In this document: piece after piece, positions 33,857 to 48,162 of the stretch
Layout of the letters: every line of letters starts with the position of its first letter
Position numbering within the stretch: the stretch's first letter is position 1
DNA from: an uncultured Methanomassiliicoccales archaeon
GTDB taxonomy: Archaea; Thermoplasmatota; Thermoplasmata; Methanomassiliicoccales; UBA472
DNA length: 64,000 nt
Reading direction: 5' to 3'
NCBI GenBank assembly: GCA_963695345.1
Contig: OY968769.1
Coordinates: 1,472,001-1,536,000, forward strand
The notes under the pieces: model-generated
Seen by the model: the letters and a program-made list of their open reading frames with translations, nothing else
The model's database searches: none
What the model was told of the DNA's origin: nothing
Made by a program: the position numbers and the translations under genes

Positions 33857-34644
33857 TTTGTCTTGGCCCCCTGTATTAATTTGAGAACTTCCGCGTCGGT
33901 CTTGGTCTTGATGTCCAACGACCTGAAATAGTGATTTATATTGGTGATGTCCCGTTTCAGGAACTCCAGCGAGTTCACATGATCGACCAGCATCGCCTGC
34001 CCGACGTCGATGATGACCGGCTCGCCGTTCTCCATGAGGATGTTGTACTCGCTGAGGTCTCCGTGGACCAGCTCCGCCTTCTGATACATGATCTTCATGT
34101 ACTTCAGGATCGTCTTGTATATCTGATCCGGGTCCTCCAGGTGCGAGTTCTTGAGGCTCGGGGCTGGCTGTTCCTCGGTGCCGATGTATTCCATGAACAG
34201 GATGTTCTTGTGGAACCGTACTGGTTCTGGGACCCGGACCTTAGCCTCGGTCATGCGGCAGAGGTTCTTGAACTCCTTGGCCGACCAGGCAAAGACGATC
34301 TTGCGGTGGGATCCCTGCAGGCCCTTGAACCGGGGATCTCCCTCGATATACTTGGCGATGTTGTGGAAGGTCGAGTTGGAGGTGCGGTAGACCTTCATCG
34401 CCAGTATCTCGTTCTCGGGCGTGGTGACACGAAAAACGTTGCCCTCCTTGCCGGTGGAGATAGGGAAATCGACCGTCTCCAGCACGCCCATCTTCATGAG
34501 CTTGTCGAGGGCGTACATGGTCTGCCGGTCGAAGACCTCGTCCAGCGTCTTGCGGGCGTCATCCTGGGCATTCTCGGAACGCCTCAGGCGGAGGCTCTCC
34601 ACCTTGCGATCAAGATCAGAAAAAGTATTGTCGTTCTTGGGCAT
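33853..34644 (-). CDS. rio1: RIO1 atypical Ser/Thr kinase
   Basis: ISTGKE, K.YR, LVHGDLSEYNIL, IDVGQA. Confidence 0.95.
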   Translation of the reverse strand: MPKNDNTFSDLDRKVESLRLRRSENAQDDARKTLDEVFDRQTMYALDKLMKMGVLETVDFPISTGKEGNVFRVTTPENEILAMKVYRTSNSTFHNIAKYIEGDPRFKGLQGSHRKIVFAWSAKEFKNLCRMTEAKVRVPEPVRFHKNILFMEYIGTEEQPAPSLKNSHLEDPDQIYKTILKYMKIMYQKAELVHGDLSEYNILMENGEPVIIDVGQAMLVDHVNSLEFLKRDITNINHYFRSLDIKTKTDAEVLKLIQGAKTK

Positions 34645-34658
34645 TGCGATGCCCTCCC

Positions 34659-34985
34659 TTAAAAGACATCCAGGTTCTTCGGCAATACCTTCTTGCGGCT
34701 CATATAGGTAGCCTGGGTCTTGGTGTAACGGTAAAGGATGTCCGCTTTGTCGTCCTGGAATTCCCAGGGACGGAGGATGAGCAGGTCCCCCTCACGGATC
34801 CACATGCGCTTGCGGATCTTGCCCGGTATACGGCCCATGCGGGACTTTCCGTCCGCGCACATGATCTTGATTCTCGAGGCTCCGAGAAGCTGGTCGGCTA
34901 TGCCGAACATTTCTCCCTCCTTCCTGTTTGGATAGGGGCAGCGCAGAATCTCATCGCTCTGCTCCACATCAACCTGATTATTCAA
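34659..34985 (-). CDS. eif1a: Translation initiation factor aIF-1A
   Basis: LLGASR..C.DG..R.GRIPGK..KR.WIREGD, PWEFQ..KADI; TTATATA at 35027-35033 (minus). Confidence 0.96.
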   Translation of the reverse strand: MNNQVDVEQSDEILRCPYPNRKEGEMFGIADQLLGASRIKIMCADGKSRMGRIPGKIRKRMWIREGDLLILRPWEFQDDKADILYRYTKTQATYMSRKKVLPKNLDVF

Positions 34986-35108
34986 TCAAAGCCTCCGATT
35001 AGTGCGTCTCTCATAAACTAAACTAGTATATAACGTTGTTTCAGGGAATGACCGCTAAACCAGCCAATGGCCATTCAGAGTCTGTTATGTCCATCGTCTA
35101 GCAGCCAA

Positions 35109-35954
35109 TCATCGGAATAGCTCGTCCGCGAGCCAGTGATCGCGGTCCATGCGGGCCTGCTCGTCGAGGGCATGGCCAGAATCGTACCATTTCACAACCT
35201 TCGGGTCGCTCGCCGCGTCCGCCAGGGATTGCATCCTGTCGTGCCCGAAATACTCTTCCCTGGTCCCCATTTGAAGCATGACGCTCGCCGGTGCCGCATG
35301 GGGAACGAACCGGACAGGGTCGATGTCCTCCACCTTCCCACGGTATCTCGCCACCTCTTCCTTGGTAATGTTCGGTATGCTCGCTGTCGCCACGTCGGCG
35401 AAGCTTACGGTCCCCGACATTAGAACATACGCCCTGGCCCTCCGATCGATGCTGGTGATCAGGGCACCGCACAAGGCTCCCAGGCTGTGCCCGACATATC
35501 CGAGTCGCTCCCCGTCCACCATCGGCTCGGACATCAGAACGTCGATCGCCCTCCTGAGGTCCTTGACAGAGTCGATGAACTCCGCCCGGTCGTGGTCTGG
35601 ATTTCCCATGTCCTTCGCCCATTCCATGCCCGCTGACCATGCCGCGTCCACCATAAGTGAGCAGATCCGCAGGTCAGCCAGTTTCAACGCCTCGTCCAGG
35701 AAGGTCTTTCTGGAACCGGGCAGAGGATGGACGAACAGAATAGCGGGGAATCCCTTTCCGACCGTAGGGGTCACCATGTAGGCGTTGATCGTTCGGCCGC
35801 TGGCCCCTCGATAGCTGATGTCATGCACGACCTTCCCGTCGAATACCTCCTCTCCAACCTCATGAATGTCCAGGTCTGCTTCGGTATTGTAATCGAAACG
35901 GGGGTCGCTCTTCAGGTTCAGTGTTATGCTGGGTGATGAGATCATTTGAATCAT
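35109..35954 (-). CDS. Alpha/beta hydrolase
   Basis: YVGHSLGA nucleophile elbow; C-terminal YDSGH; start uncertain. Confidence 0.85.
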   Translation of the reverse strand: MIQMISSPSITLNLKSDPRFDYNTEADLDIHEVGEEVFDGKVVHDISYRGASGRTINAYMVTPTVGKGFPAILFVHPLPGSRKTFLDEALKLADLRICSLMVDAAWSAGMEWAKDMGNPDHDRAEFIDSVKDLRRAIDVLMSEPMVDGERLGYVGHSLGALCGALITSIDRRARAYVLMSGTVSFADVATASIPNITKEEVARYRGKVEDIDPVRFVPHAAPASVMLQMGTREEYFGHDRMQSLADAASDPKVVKWYDSGHALDEQARMDRDHWLADELFR

Positions 35955-36164
35955 TACTTGGTTTGGTAGTATCAGATATAAGATGATTGGCGGGCGGATC
36001 GGCAACCAATTCGGACCGTCTTTGTTGGCGCAGTGCCAAGGATAAGGAGGAATGGGGTTGGGGGGTGTCCATGGTGATTAGTGGTGTTGATCGCTTCAAT
36101 AACCGTTACGATCTGCACCTTACCTAAGGTTTAAGTATGGTTTCCAATATGAACGCATAAATCC

Positions 36165-36268
36165 GCTCCCGTAGTGTAGTCCGGTCAATCATGTTGGCCT
36201 TTCGTCGCGGGGAATTGCTTCGCGGAAGCAAGTCAACGACTCGGGTTCAAATCCCGGCGGGAGCACCA
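36165..36268 (+). tRNA. tRNA-Glu(TTC) with 26-nt intron at 37/38 (36205-36230)
   Basis: Acceptor GCTCCCG/CGGGAGC, anticodon TTC 36201-36203, T loop TTCAAAT, ACCA; BHB: CTTT pairs with intron GAAG, inner helix cgcgggg/cttcgcg; TTTAAGTA TATA at about 36130. Confidence 0.93.
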
Positions 36269-36532
36269 CTTCTATCCAAAAGATAAATTTCTGCTCAGGC
36301 ATTTTCGATATCATGGTCGGACCTAATAAGTTCAACACGATCAAATATTGGTGCCGCCAAAGCCATGGATTGCATATGGGGCGAATATCTTGGTCCTGTT
36401 CCCGGGTCGGCCTTCCCGATACGGGCATGATATGGGTTTTGATCCTGCGATGGTATGCTAACCTAGCATCGCCTCCCCAGTCATTTTCCTCTTCCCATGT
36501 CGCAAAATTGAAATAAAAACCTTGTTGATTGG

Positions 36533-37609
36533 TTGAAGGGTGTTCACATAGCGAACTTGCCGGACCTGACCAGATCCGAACTTGATTCTCATTTCGTCCA
36601 ACTGCAGAAGAAATGTCCCCATCTTCAGGCCTTCGTCAAAGCTCCCCGGTCTGACCTTACCTATGTTTATCCCGAGGGCGCCGATTCCCAATCATTCCAT
36701 GGTGCAAGCATCGGCAAGCTGTTCACCACTACGCTCGTTCATCAATTAGTGATGGAGGGCAGGTTGTCGTTATCGACGCCCTTATACAAACTGGTTCCCG
36801 AGTACACATTGAAAAGGCTCTTCGTCTACCGTGGACTGGACTACCGTCATCTTGTGACCGTGGACCACCTGCTCACCCATACCTCGGGGATGGCCGATAA
36901 CTTCGGTGACAAAGGGAAAAAGGCTACGCAGTTCATGGACCTCGTCCTCTCAGAGCCAGAACGACTATGGGACCCGGATTCGATCCTGGAGTTCTGCCGG
37001 GAGAACCTCGATGCGGTTGATGTCCCTGGGGCCCGGTATCACTACTCCGACCCCGGTTTCGTCCTGCTCGGGAAGATCATCGAGGCGGTGACTGGGAAGA
37101 AGTTCCATCAAAATCTGCAGGAACGGATTTTCGATCCACTGGGGATGACCAATTCCTACTTCCTATTCACTCCTCAGAGATCAGCCCGTGGGCCGATCAA
37201 CAAGATCGAGCTGCACGGTTCCGATGTGTCAGGATACAATAGTCTCAGCTGCGATCAGGCAGGTGGTGGCGTTGTTTCGACCCCGAAGGACCTGGATGTT
37301 TTCATCAGGGCTTTGTTCCAAGGGCGTTTGATAGAAAGAGGACTCTTGCAGGGCATGATGGACTTTCCCTACAAATTTCGAAACGGGATCTACTACGGGA
37401 GGGGGACGATGGAACTGCGGATGGAAGGCCTTTTCTTCTTACTAAGAGGATATCCCCGATTTAGGGGCCATATCGGGATCCTGTCCACTCACCTATGGTA
37501 CGACGAGGTAAATGACATCAGCTATGTACTGAACTTCGGCTCCGACCGGCATATGAAGCTCAGCTTCCAGGCCTTGATAAGGTTGGTCAATGCATATGGA
37601 CGACGTTAG
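36533..37609 (+). CDS. Serine hydrolase (beta-lactamase/PBP fold)
   Basis: SIGK (SxxK), LLTHTSG, YHYSD, GGG.VST, GHIG. Confidence 0.9.
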   Translation: MKGVHIANLPDLTRSELDSHFVQLQKKCPHLQAFVKAPRSDLTYVYPEGADSQSFHGASIGKLFTTTLVHQLVMEGRLSLSTPLYKLVPEYTLKRLFVYRGLDYRHLVTVDHLLTHTSGMADNFGDKGKKATQFMDLVLSEPERLWDPDSILEFCRENLDAVDVPGARYHYSDPGFVLLGKIIEAVTGKKFHQNLQERIFDPLGMTNSYFLFTPQRSARGPINKIELHGSDVSGYNSLSCDQAGGGVVSTPKDLDVFIRALFQGRLIERGLLQGMMDFPYKFRNGIYYGRGTMELRMEGLFFLLRGYPRFRGHIGILSTHLWYDEVNDISYVLNFGSDRHMKLSFQALIRLVNAYGRR

Positions 37610-38061
37610 GAATTGCGTCGAAGCCGCAATTAACATTGGACTTTAATGGCATATGCTTGTAGCACGTCCCATTGGAACAACATTCCCTATTCTGGAAGAG
37701 GGGCGGGGAAGTTCCGATACACATATTCGACCGGTCCAGATAGTAGCCCTAGGCTAGGGCCAATATTCAGTGCCTATAGACCACCGCGACTGGACCGTTC
37801 TGGTTCGGCCATCGGCTGATGAAACTGCCGAACTGGTCCTTGAATAATAGTATGCGATCGATGGTGAACACACAATATGCCTGACCGTTTTCAATTCAGT
37901 TTCGGCCAGGGCATGTCGTGATTCTTTTAGTTGGCCAGGTCGGACGTTAATGTGAGGACCTTTCGAGGCCAGTGGAGATGGTCGTCGTTCTTCTGGTGGG
38001 CATCGTTGCGATCACAGGGGATGGGACCGATCCGGGAATGGTGGCTGGGTTCGAGATCTGT

Positions 38062-38856
38062 TTATCTCTTCAGCCTCTTGCGCATGATGTTCACGAAACG
38101 CGTGTTGCTGATCGGGTGGTCGGCGATCAGCTCACCGTCGTGGACGATGCAGAACACACCGAATGGGCAGGGAGAAGCCTGGGCCTCATCCGAGCCTTCG
38201 ATCTCGATCAATTTCGTCCTCAGTCCGAACTCGTCCTTGGCACTCGCCATGATGGCGTTCACGTTCTTCACGGAATAGGGGCACTGTGGAGAGCGTAGGA
38301 TGGTGACTCCCTCGCCATACCGTTTCAGGCCGTCCATCATGTCCTTCTTGAAACAGGGGTCCTCTGCCGAATCTCCGAACCTAAGGGCCAAGAGCTCGAA
38401 GTCCGGCGGTGCACTGTCTACCGCCACGAACCCCTTCTTCTGGAAGATATCCCTGTCCGCCATGAACGAACCCTTTCGGGTGACCACCGCAACTCCGTCC
38501 AATCCCTGTTCTTTAGACTCCCTGATGCACTCCTCTAGAAGTGCCGAGGCAAGCCCCCTCCCTTTGTACTCCTTCCTGAAGCCGACAAAGATGCAATGGA
38601 TGAACATGTACCTGTCCGCATCGACCGGCCGATGCGCATACTTACCGGGAATGTATTCCAGCATTCCCTGGTAACCGCCGCTCTCCATGATGACTGCCTT
38701 GATCCTGAGGCCCAGGGGGTGGTATCTCCTGAACCACTCAATCTTCCGCTGAAGCTCGACCTGCTTACCGACGTCCTTGTACCCGCACACACCGTAGTCG
38801 GCGATGTTTCCCGGCGTTAGGTCGACGATCTCAAATTTTTCCATCCATACCATCAA
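38062..38856 (-). CDS. GNAT acetyltransferase with C-terminal YoaP domain
   Basis: LEYIPG..A.RPV, IHC..V, KGRGLA..LL, QCPY, AQ..PCPF. Confidence 0.85.
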   Translation of the reverse strand: MMVWMEKFEIVDLTPGNIADYGVCGYKDVGKQVELQRKIEWFRRYHPLGLRIKAVIMESGGYQGMLEYIPGKYAHRPVDADRYMFIHCIFVGFRKEYKGRGLASALLEECIRESKEQGLDGVAVVTRKGSFMADRDIFQKKGFVAVDSAPPDFELLALRFGDSAEDPCFKKDMMDGLKRYGEGVTILRSPQCPYSVKNVNAIMASAKDEFGLRTKLIEIEGSDEAQASPCPFGVFCIVHDGELIADHPISNTRFVNIMRKRLKR

Positions 38857-38999
38857 TTGGCATGGCTGGTTTTAAATCTAGTCATATTGTTCCGACCACC
38901 CAACGCTATTGGTATGGGATATCAGAACTGGCGCTCATGTTAGGGTTGACCTACTCTGAATCCGGGATTGGAAGAGAAGGGCTCAAACAAAACCAATTT

Positions 39000-39635
39000 T
39001 TACGGTCTATCTCCGTTCAGTATGCTCTGGGCATTAGTATCTTTTAGAGTATAGGTCACGCTCAACCCCGGGTCGATGGTTACTGTCGTGTAAACCACCT
39101 TGGTATCAACACCGATGTAGGTATCGGACGGTGGGATTGATCCGCCGTCCCCCAGCGATTTCTCAGGGCAATGGTAGTGGTACACCCTCTTCTCTCCGAA
39201 CGCCGTCTGGACCGTCTCGATCGTTGGTGTCGCATTGTTGTTGCTGGTGTCACTGAGGGCATAACCGATGTGAGGCCAGTAAGAGTAGTCACGGGACTCG
39301 TTGTGGTACACTACTGTGCCATTGTAGTAGATATCATAGTTATGCATCGTGAAGGAGCGATAGCTCGACCCGGTGATGTTCCAGACGATAGTGGTATGCA
39401 TCACGGACTCCGAGTTGTACGCTACCGCCTGGTCCCAGATCAGGTAGTCGCCGGCCTCAAGGTTCGCGTGTGGCCCCCCGAATGGCAGCCCGGCGAGGAC
39501 CATCAGGAACGGTGAGGTGAATACGGCCACGATCAATAGGGAGAGGAGGATCAATTTTAGCCGGAAGCGTGGTCTCTTGGCGGGTGGACCGACCGTTACG
39601 ATCTGTTGTTGATCGACCTCGAATTGAGCATCCAT
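39000..39635 (-). CDS. Hypothetical membrane-anchored extracellular protein
   Basis: Basic stretch + one TM helix, then beta-rich domain with TAFG motif and several N-x-S/T sequons. Confidence 0.7.
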   Translation of the reverse strand: MDAQFEVDQQQIVTVGPPAKRPRFRLKLILLSLLIVAVFTSPFLMVLAGLPFGGPHANLEAGDYLIWDQAVAYNSESVMHTTIVWNITGSSYRSFTMHNYDIYYNGTVVYHNESRDYSYWPHIGYALSDTSNNNATPTIETVQTAFGEKRVYHYHCPEKSLGDGGSIPPSDTYIGVDTKVVYTTVTIDPGLSVTYTLKDTNAQSILNGDRP

Positions 39636-40017
39636 GACTTTCCCGTCTGTAATGATCTGTAGACTGAATTATTCCAGCCACTTTAATAATTGATGTCCTA
39701 CCCGAAATCAAAGGAGCCGATCCATTTATGTAGCCCCCTCGAAACGAGGCTGCCCGATACCGGAGGTCTCTCGCCAGATGATCTGGTCCCTTTGGGAAAT
39801 GTTTCGGAGAAAACCTTCACCATCCCATGACGATGTGGTTCCAGTGAGTTCGAGAACTCCTTACGGTACCTGACGATTCTTCAGATTTCATTCGTAGGCG
39901 ATTTTAACAATTTGTTAAGGGTCCAGGATCGCCCCGAGCCTGTCCTTTCCGTCTTCCAGATTTCCGTGGGTAAAGAGGCGCCTTGCTTTCCATTCATTCC
40001 AATATGTAGAAATTTTC

Positions 40018-40033
40018 ATAAATTTATATATAG
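40018..40033 (+). promoter_or_regulatory. TATA box of the small-protein/prenyltransferase operon
   Basis: ataaaTTTATATAtag, nearly identical to the promoter at 8378-8394; GGAGA RBS at 40055-40059. Confidence 0.65.
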
Positions 40034-40067
40034 AAAGTATAGACAATATATACTGGAGATCATGCAC

Positions 40068-40361
40068 ATGATCCAAAAAGAACCTACCATGGATATGGAG
40101 TCATTCATCGCCAAATTGAACAGCGACACGGCCTTCCGAAACAAGTTCCTTGATTATCCTGTGGATACTTTAAGAGAATCTGGATTTTCCTTAGGACAGG
40201 ATGTAGAGGAGAAAATCGAGGCAGCAATGGGTTATCTTAAGGAAGATATCAGGCACATTTTCGAAATCCCGTCAGGATCTAGTGATTTCCTGGAGATGAT
40301 CGGGTTCGGATTAACGATGCCGCCGGAGATCGAGGTCGAACCAGATATCAAAATCACATAA
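40068..40361 (+). CDS. 97-aa acidic protein with NHLP/Os1348-type RiPP leader-like N-terminus
   Basis: FIAKLNSDTAFRNKFLDYPVDTLRESGFSL resembles the D-x-x-F-R-x-x-L-L-x-D-P-x-x-x-L-x-x-x-G-x-x-L leader motif; start ATG 40068 (or 40062/40089), not the track's 39912. Confidence 0.65.
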   Translation: MIQKEPTMDMESFIAKLNSDTAFRNKFLDYPVDTLRESGFSLGQDVEEKIEAAMGYLKEDIRHIFEIPSGSSDFLEMIGFGLTMPPEIEVEPDIKIT

Positions 40362-40363
40362 CA

Positions 40364-41371
40364 ATGGTCGGTTCAGAGATTTATTCCGATTTTACCAGCA
40401 ATATCCGTTGGATCAGGGAGCAAGTAGGAGCAGATGTCACAAACCTGCCGCCGCGCCTGCGGCAGATGGGGAAGAGGATAGCCAGCGAACGACTTTTCAT
40501 AGTTCCCGATGGGATCCATACCCCCCGACTCGACCCGGAATTCGGACGTCCGATCCCGTATTGTGTGTACTGGTTCGCCGATGCCCTGGGATATACCGAT
40601 CATGAAAAGATCAATTCCTTTGCCTTGGCCATGACATACTCCTCAATGTCATCGACCCTTCGTGATGATATCGTAGACAGCAATGAGCTGAGGCGCGAAC
40701 GCCTCCACCTGCTTGAGCTATCCAATATTTTCCAACGGAAATATATTGAGATATTCGAGAAGGCATTCGATAAGCGATCTAGCCTCTGGCGTTACCTCGC
40801 TCAAGCATTGGATGAAGAACTCAGGTATGAGAGTTGGAACAAGGCTTTCACTCTGGAAACATGCCGAAATCCTTTCTCCGTCCGATTTATTGAGGACTCG
40901 TCCCGTTATTTCTATGCGGTCGTCATGCCCTCGCTGGTTGCAGTTGCCGTGGCAGCTGAGGCTGAAAGCAAGGTAGCAAAGATCACCAGGTTCGCCAGGC
41001 ACCTTTCCATGGGGTCACGCATTCATGACGACCTTAAGGATTGCAGGACCGACCTGGGAATGGTGGATATGAACCACTCCTGCATCCTCCTGCATGCAAG
41101 GCAATGCCTTGGAGAGGGCGGGGAGTTGGATGAGGAAATCCTCACAAGCCTCTTCCTCAGTGAAGGATTCGTTAGGAGCGTTTACGATCCCATCGTTCTT
41201 TATTTCAACAAAGCCAGGGAAGATATCCTCCCCTTCAACTCGCGCTATCTAACTAAATTCATGGATGAGCAATCGAGCTTCATTGCCAGGGCGAGGGATA
41301 GTACACTCAAGCGGCAAACAAACTTCTTCGCTAGCATGGCGTCACTACTCAAGCCATACGCACAAAAATAG
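40364..41371 (+). CDS. Class 1 isoprenoid-synthase-fold enzyme (putative prenyltransferase)
   Basis: DDIVD at 40664-40678 and DDLKDCRTD from 41027, about 120 aa apart; all-helical composition; starts 2 bp after the small gene's stop. Confidence 0.8.
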   Translation: MVGSEIYSDFTSNIRWIREQVGADVTNLPPRLRQMGKRIASERLFIVPDGIHTPRLDPEFGRPIPYCVYWFADALGYTDHEKINSFALAMTYSSMSSTLRDDIVDSNELRRERLHLLELSNIFQRKYIEIFEKAFDKRSSLWRYLAQALDEELRYESWNKAFTLETCRNPFSVRFIEDSSRYFYAVVMPSLVAVAVAAEAESKVAKITRFARHLSMGSRIHDDLKDCRTDLGMVDMNHSCILLHARQCLGEGGELDEEILTSLFLSEGFVRSVYDPIVLYFNKAREDILPFNSRYLTKFMDEQSSFIARARDSTLKRQTNFFASMASLLKPYAQK

Positions 41372-41378
41372 GGAATTG

Positions 41379-42494
41379 TCAGGCGAATAGACGCAGGGTG
41401 AGATTGGCCAGGATGATGGCTATGACAGAAATGATGATCGTGACAAATTTGTTCAGAATCGCGGTGTCAATAGGCCAATCCGGGACTGAATTCAGGCTCT
41501 TCTCCGCCCTCTCCAAGGTCATCAGGGAGGTGAGGTTGTCCAGTTTCCTCTGCATCTTAGCCACTGTATCGTTGGCGCAGGGCTCTGGCTTTCCATCGAC
41601 GCCTATGCAGGCCAACTTGAGCAATTCAGTTCTTTCAATATCCTTCTGTTCGACCATCTTCGTGTGAACTGCGTATAGTGGCGATACGAAAAGCACAACG
41701 CCGACCGCTATGAAGGTTGTGAGCAGAGTTATGAATGGGACGAATCCAACTATCGGCGAGCCAATCATTGAGGCTATGGCCATCATGATCAGGATCACCA
41801 TGGCAGAAAAGTAGACGACGGACATCGATAGCGACAGGTCACCGAAGGGCCGGACCCCGAGCATTCTGTCTTCAGTCGAAGGCTTCAGTATGAGGGGCTT
41901 TTGCCCAAGTTTGTGCAGGCCATAGATGGAGCCAAAGTAAACCCAGGCAAAGGTGCAGCAGGCGATGAACCAAAGGGGATAGACAATGGCTAAGTAGATC
42001 GCGGTAGCAATGTTGACAGCATAGGCGCTGAAGCTTGCCGTGAGGTAGTCGCTTGATGAAATGACATAGAACGCTATGATCAAAGCCGCTATCACGACGG
42101 GAGGCCACTGCCTGAATACAAACTCGAATGTTTCATGGAATGTCTGCTCCCTCTCAGGCAATATCGGGCTCATCCCCTTCTCCGCTGAGATGAGCCGACG
42201 TCTCATGAATCCCGTCATATAGAACACGAAGAAGAGGAGAAGCCATGTGAGCGCCAGAATGGCAACCCCCATCCAATAGGGGGTGCCCACCCCTCCGATG
42301 AATGTGATGGTCATTTGTATCGCAAGCTCGATCTGAAAGCCGGTGGTAAGATATGCCACCAGGATCGCACCAGGCGGTCCAATGAGGGTTGATATTATGA
42401 AACAGCCAATGATGTAGGGCATACGGAAAAACCCGGCGAGATGCTCGACAACGGTCGCTTTTTCAAGGCTGGGAACCATGGCTAAAACATCCAC
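41379..42494 (-). CDS. Hypothetical multi-pass membrane protein
   Basis: About 7 TM helices; DRMLGVRPFG loop, PL..VH.KM, PDWP before the last helix. Confidence 0.8.
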   Translation of the reverse strand: MDVLAMVPSLEKATVVEHLAGFFRMPYIIGCFIISTLIGPPGAILVAYLTTGFQIELAIQMTITFIGGVGTPYWMGVAILALTWLLLFFVFYMTGFMRRRLISAEKGMSPILPEREQTFHETFEFVFRQWPPVVIAALIIAFYVISSSDYLTASFSAYAVNIATAIYLAIVYPLWFIACCTFAWVYFGSIYGLHKLGQKPLILKPSTEDRMLGVRPFGDLSLSMSVVYFSAMVILIMMAIASMIGSPIVGFVPFITLLTTFIAVGVVLFVSPLYAVHTKMVEQKDIERTELLKLACIGVDGKPEPCANDTVAKMQRKLDNLTSLMTLERAEKSLNSVPDWPIDTAILNKFVTIIISVIAIILANLTLRLFA

Positions 42495-42601
42495 GTAGCA
42501 ATGAATGAACTTAAGACATATAAAAATGCAGAGAACGTATTCATTTTACTTAACATATAAATTTGTTCTTCGAATCCCCCGACAATATTTATTGGTATTA
42601 T

Positions 42602-44065
42602 TTAATAATATATCAGCCTCCCTTCTATCTCCCGACCACAGTTCTGATTGTTGCGCAACCATTCTTCCAGGACCTCTCTGGCACTTGTGGTTACAACCTT
42701 CGGTTTGATGGAATTCAGTTCATCGCTGGAAATGTCAAGAAACGCCTTGGAGTTCTTGGCATGGTATGGCTGAATGCAAATCCTGAATGTGTCGTTGTCA
42801 AGGACCTCATTGCCTTTCACGCTCAAGGACCTAAGGATTCCTGCGCCCTCGTCGTAGATGGCCTTAACATTTCCATTCACCTGAAAGCATTCACCTTCTC
42901 CATTTCGGTTCACCTTTCGCATTATATGGCCGAACATACGCCGGAGCTGCGTTCCGGTAACGGTATACCTGGTAAGGGGTTCATCGTAAGGGAAGCCGGT
43001 GGCCATGTCCCTCAGTGCCACCATCGGACCGATCTCCTTGGACCTGATCGAACCACTGGCCAGGAACATGATATCGCTCTCGGTCATCTCCGCCAATGCA
43101 TCGGCAAAGAGATTTCCCAGGCTGGTCTCGACCTCACGCATCGGATGGGTGTGCTTGAACTTGAGTTTGGAGATCATTGCGGAATATTTGTCCTCGACCC
43201 GTTCCTCATATGTATGTATGAATTTCTCCAGGTCTCGGTCGGGCTCCACCAGGCTTTCGTCGATATGGACCAACTGCCATTGGTAATCGATGATACGGTT
43301 CGTTTCGTCATCGATCACGACGTCCAGTCTCCCTATCTGGTTCGTCCCCTCGCCCGCGGTGACGATTATCACGCCGTTCTCCATGATCGGTTTGTCAAGA
43401 ATTGTATGAGAATGCCCCCCCACAATGATATCCACCCCCCATTCGGGCTTGAGCAATCTTGCCAGTTCGATGTCCGATTCTATCCCGATGTGAGTGAGGA
43501 TGATGGTCAGGTCGATATCATCGCCTTTATAGGCATTGGTGATCTTTCCCACCTCCTGGCTCGCCTCTTCGAGATCGACGAAGCTTCTCAGCACGTTGTC
43601 TCCCTTTATCGTATCCATCACCTTTTCGGTGATAATCCCGGTCACCAGGATGTCAAGCCCTGCCTTCTTCAGAATGCAGAAGGGCTTCATCAGTCGCTTG
43701 TTGAAGGGCTTGAGGTAGAGGTTGGCGTTGACGATGGGGAAGTTAGCTACCTTCTCCAGAAAGAGCAGATGTGAGAGCCCGTAGTCGAACTCGTGGTTCC
43801 CTAAGGCAATCGCATCAGGAATTAGATAATTGACCATGTCCATGGTGGATATGCCCTTGTACTCGCTGTCTATGAGATTCCCTTGAACGATGTCCCCGGC
43901 AATAAGGAACAATACGTTCTCCTCCTCATGGCGGACCTTGTTCAGATAGCCAGAGATGAGTGCTAGTCCACCAGTTTTCCTCCCGGTGTAAGGATCCTGC
44001 TCAGCCAGGAAATCCCCATGCATGTCGTTGGAATGAAGTATAGTGATTTTCCTCGTCCCCGTCAT
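42602..44065 (-). CDS. Bifunctional metallophosphatase/5'-nucleotidase, no signal peptide
   Basis: HSNDMHG, AGD, LGNHEFD, LTHIG, GGHSH, ETSLGNLFAD. Confidence 0.92.
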   Translation of the reverse strand: MTGTRKITILHSNDMHGDFLAEQDPYTGRKTGGLALISGYLNKVRHEEENVLFLIAGDIVQGNLIDSEYKGISTMDMVNYLIPDAIALGNHEFDYGLSHLLFLEKVANFPIVNANLYLKPFNKRLMKPFCILKKAGLDILVTGIITEKVMDTIKGDNVLRSFVDLEEASQEVGKITNAYKGDDIDLTIILTHIGIESDIELARLLKPEWGVDIIVGGHSHTILDKPIMENGVIIVTAGEGTNQIGRLDVVIDDETNRIIDYQWQLVHIDESLVEPDRDLEKFIHTYEERVEDKYSAMISKLKFKHTHPMREVETSLGNLFADALAEMTESDIMFLASGSIRSKEIGPMVALRDMATGFPYDEPLTRYTVTGTQLRRMFGHIMRKVNRNGEGECFQVNGNVKAIYDEGAGILRSLSVKGNEVLDNDTFRICIQPYHAKNSKAFLDISSDELNSIKPKVVTTSAREVLEEWLRNNQNCGREIEGRLIYY

Positions 44066-44198
44066 CGTATCACCGGACGGAATCCGTCTCTTTCATACAA
44101 ATAAAAGCGTCCGATTTGGAACATCGTTCGGTCAACGTTCGACTACCATTTCCGAACTTACGAGGGTTCAGGAGGAAATCCATTGCCTATGTGCCCCA

Positions 44199-45407
44199 TC
44201 ACAATTCCGGGGCAGGCTCACCCCGAGGTACTTCTCGCCCCCTTGAGGAAATGAAGACCGCGAAATAGGCCAAGCCAATCAACGCCGACATCACACCGAA
44301 CGCGGCGAACGTCCATTCAAGGTCCTGGACCATCGCCATCACGAACGCAATTAGGAAAGTGCAAAGGAACTGCCCCAAACTCAGCAGCGTCGAATATCCT
44401 CCCATGATCTTTCCCGAATTGGTGTGCATCACCTGCTCGACCAGCAAGTCGACGACGGGGGGAGTAATGAATGACATTCCAGCGCCGATCAGGCAGACAC
44501 TGATGAAAGTGGTCGCATAGGAAGGGGGCAGGATGAAGAGTCCATATGACACGAAGATCAACAAAAAGCCAGTGGCGACCATTAGGCGCCGGTCCATGAC
44601 CGATGATATCCGTCTGTAGAGGAGGGCGGTCACACATGTGCACACGCCCAGTGCACCTAGGAACAGACCGCTGGTCAGGGCTGAGGCGCCCAGCGTCTCG
44701 AACATGTAATCTGGCAATTTGGATGGCATGATGAACATCATCAGCATGGCGAAGAATATGGCCAGGTAACAGAACGCCACCACCGTTCCGTCGGTCTTGC
44801 GGACTTCCGCATGGGCGATGCCCGGGCCTTCGGACACATGCGCCGGCTCCTTCATCGATACAATCGCCATCATCGCAAACATAAGGCCCAGTCCGTAGAT
44901 GAGGAACGGGTAGTGCCAGCCAAAGGCGGCAAGGGCTCCGCCCGTTGTCTCGAGGATCAGTACGCCGATGCCCATGGCCGCCGTCTGGTAGCTAAGCACC
45001 CTGACGCGGGAGATGCCGCCATAGTATTCCGATATGAGGGCAGTCGTTGTGCAAGTTATACCGGCAATCCCGATGCCGACGAAGAATCTGCCGACAAGTA
45101 TCGCATATAGGTCCTGTAGAAAAAATCCAGTCAATCCAGACAACGCGAAGATCAGAAGGGAAATCAGAAGGACCCTGACCTTTCCCATGCGATCGGCGAG
45201 CATTCCTATGCCGATTCCAGTGATGGCGATGGCCAGCGAGGGTAATGTGATGATCAGGTTGATCATCACCGGATCATAGCTTCCGAAAGCCTCACCGATG
45301 GCGGGCAGGGCGGGGGCCACTGCCGCGCCGCCCATAAGGATAAGCATTGAAGAAAACAGCAATGTGATGAGCGTCAGCCTAGTGGGTTTGAACGAAGCCC
45401 GATGCAT
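44199..45407 (-). CDS. MFS transporter
   Basis: APALP, GMLADRMGK motif A, GRF..G.G, W..PF..Y. Confidence 0.9.
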   Translation of the reverse strand: MHRASFKPTRLTLITLLFSSMLILMGGAAVAPALPAIGEAFGSYDPVMINLIITLPSLAIAITGIGIGMLADRMGKVRVLLISLLIFALSGLTGFFLQDLYAILVGRFFVGIGIAGITCTTTALISEYYGGISRVRVLSYQTAAMGIGVLILETTGGALAAFGWHYPFLIYGLGLMFAMMAIVSMKEPAHVSEGPGIAHAEVRKTDGTVVAFCYLAIFFAMLMMFIMPSKLPDYMFETLGASALTSGLFLGALGVCTCVTALLYRRISSVMDRRLMVATGFLLIFVSYGLFILPPSYATTFISVCLIGAGMSFITPPVVDLLVEQVMHTNSGKIMGGYSTLLSLGQFLCTFLIAFVMAMVQDLEWTFAAFGVMSALIGLAYFAVFISSRGREVPRGEPAPEL

Positions 45408-45564
45408 TTTTCCCCGCAGTGAGTACTACCCTATATCAAATTAACCCATTGATTCTGCGTCAACTCCCCGCCCTCAGATTCCCCGGCTGGTAAGATTGGA
45501 TTGAGAGAAACCGTCTGGAACCGGCTATCGAAATATATGAAAAAGAAAAAGGTTTGACGGTTGC

Positions 45565-46398
45565 TCAAGCCGTCGACATCTTCTTGATCATGGCATAGGT
45601 CACCGGTATCAACATTACCGCCAGAGCTATCGCGAAGGCCCAAGATATGTTGGCCACTATGGTGGTGACATTGGAGAACGTGGCGAATATGGCCCCCGCG
45701 CCAATGATCAGGAAGATCGCATAAAGTATGAATTTCGCAAATCCTGCCACCTCTTTGAACTCCGAATGGTCATCGGTGATGGATTTGATCAGAGCGTCCG
45801 TCAGGGATATACCTGCCCCGATTATTACAAAACCTAGGATGAGCGGATAGACCGTTTCTCCCGAGAGGAGCATGGTGTCCAGTGCCAGCAAGATCACGAA
45901 TGCGATCAATCCTATGAACAGTAGGTTCTTGAGCATTTCCGGGATCTCAGGTTTCGTCGGTGAGAACATTGGCCGGATCATCTTGCCGATGAAGGTTGCC
46001 AGGAAGTCGACGAAGACCGCTCCGAATATAAGTATCAGTATCCCGCCGAGCAATCTTGGCAGGTAATTGGCGACGGTCGTCAGGTAATTGCCGAGATCCC
46101 CTCCCACGTTCAGGATCTGGATCGCCAATATAATTGCCAGGATAATGATGAAGGCCTTGACGACCCCGCCAATGAAATCCGACAGGTCCAAACCGGAAGT
46201 TCGGAAAGCCCTGCCTGTCACGCTCTGTTCGAATGTCTTCTCGATCCCTACCTTTTCCACTATTCTATTAACCGCCTTGCCGACCAGCGTCCCTATGATA
46301 TAACCGATGATCAGCACTACGATGGCAGCCAAGATCAATGGAATCTCGTCTATGATACTCTGCAGCATATTGTCCAGCATTGCGTTCAAGTCAGCCAT
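45565..46398 (-). CDS. TM-helix-repeat membrane protein (CmpX/MscS-associated type)
   Basis: Repeated IP.ILAAIVVLIIGY and YLPRLLGGILILIFG helices. Confidence 0.7.
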   Translation of the reverse strand: MADLNAMLDNMLQSIIDEIPLILAAIVVLIIGYIIGTLVGKAVNRIVEKVGIEKTFEQSVTGRAFRTSGLDLSDFIGGVVKAFIIILAIILAIQILNVGGDLGNYLTTVANYLPRLLGGILILIFGAVFVDFLATFIGKMIRPMFSPTKPEIPEMLKNLLFIGLIAFVILLALDTMLLSGETVYPLILGFVIIGAGISLTDALIKSITDDHSEFKEVAGFAKFILYAIFLIIGAGAIFATFSNVTTIVANISWAFAIALAVMLIPVTYAMIKKMSTA

Positions 46399-46638
46399 AA
46401 TATCGAAAAAAATAAGTCGAGCCCAGGGTATTTATTTTCTATTGCGATGTAAAATAACATAATAAACTTACAATATGAAAATTAGACTACGATGTATCTA
46501 TCATTTATGAGTCATCATTCAATACAGGCTCTCTTTCCCAAGAGCTTATTCGCCCCTCATCCGTATATGCTGTCGATTACCGGAGCTGTGTGATCTCGAT
46601 GCTCTGGCATCACCTGTCGAGATCGACCTGTCGGGACA

Positions 46639-47529
46639 TCACATAGGGTGGACCAGGAACAATCTCCATTGGATGGTCTCAGCCCCCACCGTCGTCCAGA
46701 AGCACTCCTTGGAAACTACCTGCTTCATATCAAGTTCGATAGTGAAGCGGTATGTTCCATAGCCGCTGGTCTCGTTCACCGATCTCCAACCCAAGGCCAC
46801 CAATTGGGTGAAGTTGGCATATTTCGGGTCGGTAAGTGATTTGAGTCCGATCTGGGAGGCATCCGTGTCGAATATCTCCGTTCCGTCAAGTTGCATCGCG
46901 AACCATGTGAACGATGTCCCAGTGGTCAAGGAAGGGAGTGTGGCGTTCATCATCGCCGCCACATCGTACAACGTGCTGACCGCCCCGATGAACACGCCAT
47001 CGGCATCGAACACCGGACAGGCATAACCGGAACCTCTCGCGATCCCTCGGGACGCAAAGGTATTGCTCATGGTAGGCACCTTATACTCCAATAACTCGGA
47101 CGTCTTGTTGCCGCCGCTCAGATCCACGCCTTCCAGATAGCGGAAACGTTCTGGTTCTGCTGCCTGAACCACCCCTTTCTCATCAAAGGTCAGGATATCG
47201 ATGGCATAGGGATTGGATGCCAGCGTCTTGTTGATCTCCTCCCTTGCCATCGTCCCGTTCAGTCCGGTAGTCCGGAGATGTAATGCAAGGTCGAACGTCA
47301 TGTTCCTGACCTTTTCGATCTCTCCTCCGACCGCTGCCTGTCCTTTGCTCAGGACCGAGCTCATCTGCATTCTGGTGGCAGAAGCCGATTCAATTCCATT
47401 CAGTCTTGAATTGGATTCAAGAAGGATGACCGAGAATGACGATACGATTAGGAGCGCTATGACCAAGAAGATCAATGAGATTCTGGTGCCGACCGACATA
47501 CCTTTCGGGACAAGTTCCTTGGTATTCAA
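46639..47529 (-). CDS. Membrane-anchored stand-alone Cache-like sensor domain protein
   Basis: One N-terminal TM; D..G.V...P, PVFD.DG.FIG, DG..I.D.D...IG, W.L.L at the C-terminus; no output domain. Confidence 0.7.
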   Translation of the reverse strand: MNTKELVPKGMSVGTRISLIFLVIALLIVSSFSVILLESNSRLNGIESASATRMQMSSVLSKGQAAVGGEIEKVRNMTFDLALHLRTTGLNGTMAREEINKTLASNPYAIDILTFDEKGVVQAAEPERFRYLEGVDLSGGNKTSELLEYKVPTMSNTFASRGIARGSGYACPVFDADGVFIGAVSTLYDVAAMMNATLPSLTTGTSFTWFAMQLDGTEIFDTDASQIGLKSLTDPKYANFTQLVALGWRSVNETSGYGTYRFTIELDMKQVVSKECFWTTVGAETIQWRLFLVHPM

Positions 47530-47652
47530 TAATAAGCATCCCAGACATAAGAAATCAAAAACAGGTTTCCATGCCGGTAGAGGCTGTCTTCAATGGCCAC
47601 CGGCGGGAAAACGCGACGATGTGAAAGGTAAAAATGCTTAGAGGTTCTCCTT

Positions 47653-48162
47653 TTAAAGAGAACTTATTTCCATCAGGCCCAAGACCGCGAACGTCAGCAG
47701 TATTGCCGCTAGATAGGCCGTGATGAGGACCTTGATGGGGCTTTTCTTCTGATCCTTAGTGTTGATGTATTCCCTGGCGTGCAATCCACACGCGCATGCC
47801 AGATAGATTCCGAAGACCATCAGGCAAATGCTGCTGGCAGCAATCCCCAGGTCCAGGACGACCGCTACGATAGCGGCAATTCCGAATGCCAGGTTTGCGA
47901 AGCCAACCTCGATCTGGAATTCGGGCCTATCCTGGTGCCACCCCATCCGGACTTGATCGGAACGATAGAAGATCGAATGCCTGAGAAAGCTTACGATGCC
48001 GACCATACCCACAAGTGTGAATGTGGCCACATAAATGCCGTTCTTAGAACTATCAGTGAAGAAATATATGGCAAGAAAGAGGCCGATCGCCGAGATCGCA
48101 ATAGTTGTTCTTGAGAGCAAGGCGGCTGCTTTTGGAGAGGCAACAGGAGCGTTCATTTTCAT
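47653..48162 (-). CDS. Small membrane protein, DUF6790-like
   Basis: MGW....EFQ.EVGFANLAFG motif; about 5 TM helices. Confidence 0.65.
   Translation of the reverse strand: MKMNAPVASPKAAALLSRTTIAISAIGLFLAIYFFTDSSKNGIYVATFTLVGMVGIVSFLRHSIFYRSDQVRMGWHQDRPEFQIEVGFANLAFGIAAIVAVVLDLGIAASSICLMVFGIYLACACGLHAREYINTKDQKKSPIKVLITAYLAAILLTFAVLGLMEISSL

Follow-up and report, generated by a model that had tools for sequence, protein, structure and literature searches.

Which product do two genes lying 2 nt apart in the genome of an uncultured Methanomassiliicoccales archaeon make together, and does the enzyme encoded by the second of them attach a prenyl group to the small protein encoded by the first? 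The pair is located in a stretch of 64,000 nucleotides (GenBank assembly GCA_963695345.1, contig OY968769.1, positions 1,472,001 to 1,536,000 of the forward strand), the whole of which is called the window below. A preliminary description of the locus, made from the sequence alone, had proposed a system for a peptide that is synthesized ribosomally and then modified post-translationally (RiPP), in which a precursor with an NHLP-type leader is prenylated by a maturase of the isoprenoid synthase fold. Our comparisons make it somewhat probable that the pair is an archaeal counterpart of the bacterial PalQ/PalX system, in which case the enzyme would covalently prenylate the small protein. The main elements of the locus are as follows:

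40023..40032, plus strand: TTTATATATA, a TATA-box-like element upstream of the small gene, read from the sequence by its resemblance to the consensus only
40055..40058, plus strand: GGAG, a motif resembling a ribosome-binding site, 9 nt ahead of the ATG at 40068, also read from the sequence
40068..40361, plus strand: putative precursor gene, 97 aa, NHLP-clan and PalX-like (open reading frame (ORF), leader models, alignment of relatives)
40364..41371, plus strand: gene of an enzyme with the predicted trans-isoprenyl diphosphate synthase (trans-IDS) fold, 335 aa, PalQ-related superfamily (ORF, structural model, profile comparison)
41379..42494, minus strand: convergent gene of a multi-pass membrane protein, 371 aa, no known family (ORF, locus comparison)

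The small ORF starts with the ATG at 40068 and ends with a TAA codon at 40359-40361. An in-frame ATG at 40062 would make a protein of 99 aa; the 97-aa form is also the choice of public gene callers (P0190, 100% identical). The enzyme ORF begins with the ATG at 40364, 2 nt past the stop codon of the small ORF and on the same strand, and each of the two genes is present in one copy in the 2.56-Mb genome. The spacing and the sizes of the pair were thus described correctly at the outset, and the TATA-like and ribosome-binding-site-like motifs attributed to it are found in their places. Translation also confirmed the quoted N- and C-terminal strings of the small protein, its lack of Trp and Cys, and two Asp-rich motifs of the enzyme, DDIVD at residues 101-105 and DDLKDCRTD at residues 222-230.

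Is this pairing accidental? Related loci were compared, five from species genomes and 27 from metagenomes, 32 in total. In 30 of them, the enzyme gene is directly preceded on its own strand by a small ORF that shares the leader motif; the remaining two have just 42 and 0 nt of DNA upstream of the enzyme gene and are unscorable. The contig end truncates two of the 30 linked small ORFs. Because the pair recurs in 30 of the 32 related loci, it is more than chance, and the gene-pair conservation that had been suggested as a check is present.

The relevant precedent comes from bacteria. A cluster of Paenibacillus alvei contains palP for a histidine kinase, palX for an NHLP-type precursor, and palQ for a protein of the isoprene synthase superfamily (Miyata, Ito and Fujinami 2023, PMC10853753; this article, PMC13290415, PMC12510300 and the preprint mentioned below are cited from excerpts of their texts). 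PalQ transfers C5 to C15 prenyl groups from dimethylallyl, geranyl and farnesyl diphosphates (DMAPP, GPP, FPP) onto the C-terminal Trp of PalX in a Mg/Mn-dependent reaction, which is enhanced by the NHLP domain of PalX; the PalQ residues named are K39, D89/D93, Q197 and D200/D204 (PMC10853753). The profile of the window enzyme family matched six proteins of 308-313 aa (P0087, P0114, P0143, P0159, P0167 and P0169; E-values 9e-13 to 1e-6), which carry K39, D89, D93, Q197, D200 and D204 at the exact published PalQ positions, and the clusters of four of the six include members named Paenibacillus or Pristimantibacillus. They are treated here as PalQ relatives by this residue numbering and by the organism names, PalQ's own sequence standing outside the comparison. 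In hhalign, the window family aligns with these six PalQ-like proteins with a probability of 98.8% (E 5.2e-17, 235 columns, about 24% identity); both Asp motifs are in register, and PalQ Q197 lies opposite R219 of the window enzyme. Judging from these alignments, the window enzyme is related to a characterised peptide prenyltransferase acting on an NHLP-type precursor. The idea of prenyl transfer proposed earlier gains support through this homology, the transfer itself being something that we still infer.

The enzyme was modelled with AlphaFold2 using an alignment of 15 homologues. The model is all-helical, with a predicted local distance difference test score (pLDDT) of 87.6 and a predicted template modelling score of 0.86. 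Foldseek matched it to 9a4c_B (E 4e-5, template modelling score 0.67), and VIA-align to 4jyx_F (Z 24.0, root-mean-square deviation (rmsd) 2.8 Å over 283 residues). The structural matches are trans-isoprenyl diphosphate synthases that share 12-19% identity with the enzyme and overlap it over nearly the full length; large subunits of heteromeric hexaprenyl and heptaprenyl synthases (3aqb_B, 9kp1_B, 9a4c_B) are among the best of them. On the basis of the model, the trans-IDS fold can be assigned confidently, and the isoprenoid-synthase fold of the supposed maturase is borne out. The PF00348 model gave 24.4 bits at a gathering cut-off of 27, over residues 65-113 only, and in the genome-wide search the window enzyme scored 16 bits, under the cut-off. 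The best NCBIfam match, a very weak one, is heptaprenyl synthase component II (E 3.6e-4, 19.7 vs 456 bits), and a sequence-profile search of the PDB gave only matches at E 0.31-0.8, with octaprenyl synthase and MoeN5.

The first Asp motif of the window enzyme consists of D101, D102 and D105, and the second of D222, D223, D226 and D230. Residues D101, D102, D222, D223, D226 and D230 are invariant among 15 family sequences, and every one of the 28 locus enzymes extending to that region has DDxxDxxxD. In canonical synthases, isopentenyl diphosphate (IPP) and diphosphate are bound by basic motifs, namely GKRxRP, RRG after the first Asp motif, KT, FQ and GK. Literal GKRxRP, KT, FQ and GK are absent from the window enzyme and none of them is conserved in the family alignment, unlike the geranylgeranyl diphosphate (GGPP) synthase of the same genome. 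The absence of GKR.RP and of RRG had been noted in the preliminary description, and both statements need a supplement. An invariant G61..P63..Y66 ('GRPxPY'), some 35 residues ahead of the first Asp motif, lies opposite GKRMRP, in an hhalign alignment whose probability is 5%. There is no literal RRG; RRE stands at the exact RRG spacing of the genome's GGPP synthase, in this copy alone and without conservation across the enzyme family.

The canonical GGPP synthase, which has all the motifs (PF00348, 230.7 bits), is encoded elsewhere in the genome beside a geranylgeranyl reductase gene, and the window enzyme family aligns with it in hhalign with a probability of only 5%. Because the genome has this complete canonical enzyme, the identity of the window enzyme as the housekeeping synthase of the lipid pathway was rejected. 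A second PF00348 gene of the genome (G000:C1:1892780-1893524; L035, L036) consists of two adjacent pieces in different frames, with 121.9 and 101.8 bits, and may be frameshifted or split.

The search of the small protein against leader models, another check that had been suggested, gave matches with four models, the first three of them NHLP-clan leader models: NF038399 of the Os1348 family in the NHLP clan (E 1e-5, 25.6 bits, curated cut-off 40), the NHLP leader TIGR03793 (E 2.7e-4, 20.8 bits, cut-off 50.9), TIGR04509 (E 7e-4, 19.7 bits, cut-off 34) and, in Pfam, PF14407 (E 1.1e-3, below the curated cut-off). All of them cover the first 45-50 residues, and the three NCBIfam models are matched from their beginning by the N-terminal 35-40 residues. 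No HepS/HexA-type small-subunit family was among the Pfam and NCBIfam matches at E <=10. Among 25 distinct relatives of the small protein taken from the related loci, NF038399 was matched at E <=0.01 by ten (best E 6.2e-9), TIGR04509 and TIGR03793 by seven each, and PF14407 by two. Identity to the window's small protein is 58% for the closest relative and 14-27% for the others. In the leader alignment, R24, F27 and P31 are nearly invariant and are followed in most sequences by a Pro-x-Gly-like motif; a Gly-Gly type cleavage motif is not conserved in this alignment. The tail, that is, the last 10-25 residues, varies by clade and is often Pro-rich and acidic, as it is in the window precursor after its conserved leader-type domain. 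The alignment and the linkage count thus reveal a leader that is conserved, a core behind it that varies, and a neighbouring maturase gene. The ratio of nonsynonymous to synonymous substitution rates (dN/dS) was calculated for the small ORF in nine pairs; it is 0.22-0.63 in seven of them and 1.25 in one very close pair, and the synonymous rate is saturated in one. Because of this pattern, the small gene is taken to be coding and fast-evolving.

One locus provides another indication. In L019, the gene upstream of the pair encodes a RiPP maturation radical S-adenosylmethionine (SAM) C-methyltransferase (TIGR03975, 640 bits vs a cut-off of 282), which, by this family assignment, is independent support for a RiPP setting. 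The TIGR03975 gene lies directly upstream of the pair in one clade (L019:1120-3060, L006:8-1582), which suggests additional C-methylation of the precursor there.

Does the small protein bind the enzyme? The predicted complex, another of the checks proposed at the start, scored 0.58 (runs 0.58, 0.66 and 0.55), and the best of three controls scored 0.01. The runs, for which custom alignments were used, share at least 52% of contacts, and the pLDDT of the partner is at least 65. In the calibration, the mark was passed by 58 of 80 solved complexes and by 2 of 110 mismatched pairs. The check is counted as passed with weak support; no interface came out of it. Owing to the precedent of PalQ/PalX and to the conserved adjacency, the prediction can be read as mildly favourable to binding; placement of the tail is not indicated by it.

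The question of the acceptor is more complicated. All characterised trans-IDS-like peptide prenyltransferases, namely ComQ, the P domain of ChrPC, and PalQ, target Trp, and indole recognition hinges on a Gln immediately ahead of the second Asp motif (excerpts of a 2026 review, PMC13290415, section 2.4 for the former). There is no Trp in the window precursor; 20 of the 25 precursors, the window's included, are without Trp, and a C-terminal Trp is found in only one (L025). The residue at position -3 before the second Asp motif was counted by a local search over all proteins fetched. Among the 55 core family proteins, it is Arg in 42, Lys in eight, Leu in two, His in one, Thr in one and unread in one, with no Gln. 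Among 112 more distant relatives, it is Gln in 94, Lys in five, Leu, Ala and Asp in one each, and unread in ten. The 28 enzymes of the fetched loci and the window that reach this region have Arg (21) or Lys (7). A FastTree phylogeny was made from 141 sequences, with the genome's GGPP synthase as the root; in it, 53 core proteins fall together with two Lys-bearing ones in one clade (Shimodaira-Hasegawa-like support 98). Lys is also the residue of a neighbouring group of three members, and Gln that of nearly all other groups. This tree is a quick one with long branches and was used only for the pattern of the -3 residue.

Since Trp is missing from the window precursor and Arg219 stands in place of the indole-holding Gln, the acceptor would not be Trp. 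Most likely, judging from these sequences, it would be another nucleophile at or near the C-terminus. The new, non-Trp acceptor suggested in the preliminary description therefore stands and is strengthened by the clade-wide change of Gln to Arg or Lys. Among the divergent tails, the C-terminal carboxylate is the one group that all share, and a positively charged residue at the acceptor site would suit such a group. A bolder version, which we hold to be doubtful, can be formulated on this ground: the enzyme would be the first peptide prenyltransferase of the trans-IDS fold that does not act on Trp, its Arg or Lys would position a carboxylate, in the simplest case the C-terminal alpha-carboxylate, and a prenyl ester would result, possibly from donors of C20 or longer, which archaea have in abundance; the archaeon would thereby make a lipopeptide signal specific to its strain, and the convergent membrane protein would perceive it.

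As for the mechanism, the 97-aa protein would be the substrate: it would bind the enzyme through its NHLP-like N-terminal domain and insert its C-terminal tail, which is short and variable, into the active site. A prenyl diphosphate and Mg2+ would be held by the two Asp-rich motifs, and the prenyl group would be moved onto the tail, yielding a lipopeptide. Within this scheme, the transfer, the length of the donor, the acceptor atom, the removal of the leader and the role of the product, be it a signal, an antagonist or a membrane anchor, are suppositions on our part.

A number of observations weigh against peptide prenylation by this pair. Every leader-model score of the small protein falls short of its curated cut-off, and 15 of the 25 relatives match no NHLP model at E 0.01; nevertheless, matches at E 1e-5 to 7e-4 are significant for a single-protein search. 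A profile search with the small proteins gave 18 matches, all unnamed, and for want of a named PalX-type protein among them, homology of the window precursor to PalX is not established. The dN/dS of the small ORF is merely moderately low, and in the alignment of 25 members the tails contain no conserved nucleophilic side chain. The family lacks both Trp and Gln, though every characterised enzyme of the class targets Trp, and it might have left peptide prenylation altogether. Complex scores of 0.60 and below comprise just 7 of the 80 solved complexes together with both mismatched pairs that passed, and in this band a score is more often wrong than right unless binding is likely beforehand.

Another point of this kind comes from the domain architecture of distant relatives of the enzyme. 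Some of them are fused to squalene-hopene-cyclase-like domains (P0085, P0088, P0133), others to radical SAM/SPASM domains (P0078, P0084, P0093, P0099), and a further type, with P0157 listed among the fused relatives, to a flavin adenine dinucleotide (FAD)/geranylgeranyl-reductase (GGR)-like domain. The SQHop-cyclase-like and GGR-like fusions fit small-molecule isoprenoid chemistry as well. The Gln-bearing fused relatives are metagenomic, and the radical SAM and GGR fusions are unmentioned in the excerpts of PMC10853753, PMC13290415 and PMC12510300. A cluster look-up on distant and fused relatives returned only names such as 'hypothetical' or 'uncharacterized'.

The alternative that survives best follows from the latter point. 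The enzyme may be a terpene synthase, a cyclase or a small-molecule prenyltransferase, and the NHLP-like protein its unlipidated partner, for example a chaperone, a regulator or a specificity factor. The isoprenoid synthase fold is suitable for such a role, the disappearance of both the Trp-binding Gln and the Trp acceptor would be natural, the fusions to SQHop_cyclase and FAD/GGR-like domains point in the same direction, and terpene synthases that standard annotation overlooks are widespread in archaea according to excerpts of a preprint (10.1101/2024.01.29.577750). We consider this explanation unlikely in view of the adjacency of the genes in 30 of the 32 loci, the fast-evolving tail on a conserved leader-type domain, the hhalign probability of 98.8% with a peptide-modifying family and the RiPP radical SAM maturase in one locus. 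The weak support for binding also speaks for the pair, and this alternative would allow binding too.

It is quite improbable, in our opinion, that the small protein is a true RiPP precursor which the enzyme binds without prenyl transfer, either as a scaffold for another maturase or with another diphosphate or some other compound as its substrate. The family has lost the catalytic Gln seen in Trp-directed relatives, L019 encodes a separate radical SAM maturase, and PalQ with a double mutation in its second Asp motif stayed active (excerpts of PMC10853753), by which the conservation of motifs becomes a poor guide to the mechanism. However, the Asp motifs and the extended DDxxD(W/C)xxD are invariant or nearly so, arguing for retained metal and diphosphate chemistry, and most loci show no other maturase within the available DNA. 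A heteromeric chain-elongating synthase of the HepS/HepT or HexA/HexB type with the small protein as its non-catalytic subunit is very improbable: the hexaprenyl and heptaprenyl large subunits among the best structural matches and the very weak heptaprenyl component II match (19.7 vs 456 bits) are outweighed by the matches of the small protein to NHLP-clan models rather than to small subunits of prenyl synthases, the missing literal GKRxRP, KT, FQ and GK, the failure of PF00348, the rare, patchy distribution and island location, and the hypervariable tails, which are unexpected of a structural subunit. Thus, prenylation of the small protein by its neighbour is the explanation to which we adhere below.

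How widespread is the system? The enzyme family is small, with 21 proteins in a collection of 5.8 billion proteins. Among 1.8 billion cluster representatives, a profile search gave 39 at E <=1e-30 and 318 relatives at E <=0.001; in the protein atlas, there were only unnamed clusters (Bacillota, Myxococcota) and one with PF00348 on 47% of its members, which is a lead only. The enzyme is present in two of 261 species genomes of the order, the window genome counted, in none of the seven other genomes of the window's genus, and in one of 401 genomes sampled across the phylum, this one being the window genome itself. The record titles refer to an uncultured Methanomassiliicoccus, Bathyarchaeota archaeon, uncultured archaeon, Nitrosocosmicus and, in one case, a 'Pedobacter' metagenome-assembled genome. 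The last of these is a 2.8-kb contig. Its bacterial label is uncertain because the same sequence recurs on the 9-kb soil contig L019, where the membrane protein is of the Nitrosocosmicus type. In L032:1-1022, the enzyme gene reads as two ORFs (1-387 and 546-1022) and may be disrupted.

No literature report of an archaeal system of this kind was found, though supplements (Figures S3, S5 and S6 of the PalQ paper, survey tables) may list members. The main text of an archaeal RiPP survey (PMC12144867) does not mention NHLP, nitrile hydratase, prenyl or Methanomassiliicocc.

The surroundings of the pair in the window can be described as an island with a tRNA gene at its edge:

36165..36265, plus strand: tRNA gene, 101 nt, probably intron-bearing (Rfam RF00005, 47.3 bits); context, outside the system
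36533-37609: AmpH/beta-lactamase-fold gene
38062-38856 and 39000-39635, minus strand: two unassigned genes
42602-44065, minus strand: UshA-like 5'-nucleotidase gene
44199-45407, minus strand: major facilitator superfamily (MFS) transporter gene

The distance from this tRNA gene to a conserved membrane-protein gene near 45533 is 9.3 kb here vs 1.7 and 0.7 kb in two genomes of the same genus, and a third genome of the genus has 20.6 kb of other DNA at the site. Since the stretch differs in length and content among genomes of one genus, the cluster is located in a variable spot beside a tRNA gene. The G+C content dips to 0.47-0.51 around the cluster, and no integrase was seen in the stretch 36165-45533. 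ARAGORN found no tRNA in 34000-48000, where Rfam finds the one of 101 nt; this can probably be explained by an intron-containing archaeal tRNA.

The preliminary description had stated that no protease or exporter is adjacent to the pair. This is true by family searches, and no C39-peptidase exporter is nearby in the DNA flanking the loci examined; the statement missed the conserved convergent membrane protein gene at 41379-42494. The stop codon of this gene is 7 nt from that of the enzyme gene, and the same convergent arrangement, with 4 and 10 nt between the genes, is found in two other loci. Downstream of the pair, a membrane protein of the window type was found in 13 of 33 loci (the window included), a second type in six and a third type in six; in a further six the DNA stops within or at the enzyme gene, one continues for 26 nt, and one has an unclassified cut ORF. 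In one locus, the third type is on the same strand, after a KaiC-like gene. The three types share no detectable homology (hhalign probabilities of 0.2% and 0.1%) and match no family of Pfam or NCBIfam; each contains 5-10 hydrophobic segments.

The model of the window membrane protein has a pLDDT of 71. Foldseek found no match for it at E <=0.001, the best being insect gustatory receptors at E 0.3. In a wide VIA-align comparison, insect gustatory and odorant receptor channels are at the top (Z 12.1, 11.6 and 11.3 over 284-300 residues); the first of them, with an rmsd of 5.2 Å over 284 residues, is under the caution line of about 13 for helical proteins. This modelled resemblance to seven-transmembrane chemoreceptor channels is a lead to a receptor role that is too weak to call. 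Probably, the convergent membrane protein receives, exports or processes the product.

Several other neighbours can be noted. A gene of the subtilisin family (Peptidase_S8) is located divergently upstream of the pair in L004:376-1821 (minus strand), a single instance of a candidate leader protease. A KaiC/ArlH-like ATPase gene stands beside the third-type membrane protein in three loci (L021:3621-4268, L025:2360-3060, L032:1098-1760); in L025, it appears in pieces, and this contig includes X/N.

What would prenylation of the small protein mean? Peptide prenylation by enzymes of the isoprenoid synthase fold is known from three bacterial systems, all acting on Trp (excerpts of PMC13290415). A sister family with a changed acceptor-recognition residue and Trp-less precursors would be a route to new prenylation chemistry and a potential new biocatalyst for lipidating peptide termini. 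If the proposal is true, a ribosomal lipopeptide pathway of this kind exists in Archaea, where secondary metabolism and signalling are barely known. If, in addition, the product is a signal, Methanomassiliicoccales, Bathyarchaeia and ammonia-oxidising archaea would possess a ComX-like pheromone system.

It remains to compare the pair with known systems, beginning with the most remote. With the canonical trans-IDS (PF00348), the enzyme shares the fold and two Asp-rich motifs; it differs in its identity of 12-19% and in the missing basic motifs. Ord1, an all-alpha-helical indole/tryptophan farnesyltransferase of Streptomyces, is similar in its superfamily fold and in the first Asp motif, which binds Mg and diphosphate. 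The residue three positions before the second-motif Asp is critical in it, the Q216A mutant retaining 4.2% of activity. Unlike the supposed window enzyme, Ord1 acts on free indole or Trp and not on a peptide, and it has Gln where the window family has Arg or Lys (excerpts of PMC12510300). Ord1 is absent from the PDB sequence matches at E <=1 and from the best 50 structural matches listed.

The small protein resembles the NHLP/Os1348/TIGR04509 clan in having a conserved leader and a variable C-terminal core, and differs in that its scores are below the cut-offs. ChrPC is comparable through the distant relatives of the enzyme, which have a prenyltransferase-cyclase fusion architecture like that in the review (excerpts of PMC13290415); the window enzyme, in contrast to the P domain of ChrPC, is a single-domain protein, and the fused relatives retain Gln.

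In the ComQ-ComX system of Bacillus subtilis, an enzyme of the isoprenoid synthase fold likewise attaches a prenyl group to a ribosomal peptide whose gene is its neighbour, and the resulting pheromone is detected by a receptor in the membrane (excerpts of PMC10853753, PMC13290415). ComQ has no true second Asp-rich motif and modifies an internal Trp, whereas the window family retains the second motif, and ComX is not described as NHLP-type in the excerpts of PMC10853753. ComQ was compared by its description only; no ComQ-named family was among the Pfam and NCBIfam matches of the window proteins. ComQ, which had been named as the model in the preliminary description, is thus not the closest relative, and the combination of an NHLP precursor with an isoprenoid-fold prenyltransferase has been known in bacteria since 2023. 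The novelty claimed there is lowered by this precedent.

The PalQ/PalX pair shares the most with the locus. In both, the gene of an isoprenoid synthase superfamily enzyme of about 310-335 aa directly follows that of an NHLP-type precursor, which measures about 80-100 aa and has a short C-terminal core, a membrane protein gene lies alongside, the two Asp-rich motifs stand at similar spacing, and the extended DDxxDWxxDL stretch is common to both enzyme families. The differences concern the archaeal host, the lack of Trp in the window precursor, Arg219 in place of Gln197 of PalQ, and the neighbouring membrane protein, which is convergent and, unlike PalP, has no histidine kinase domain; no kinase was found in the flanks examined, and searches of Pfam and NCBIfam gave no match for the membrane proteins beside the pair. 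Because of this bacterial precedent, the system is, by our analysis, not a new kind of system. Judging from the sequences compared, what is clearly new here are the archaeal hosts, the absence of a Trp acceptor, the clade-wide Arg or Lys in place of Gln, and the different membrane partner.

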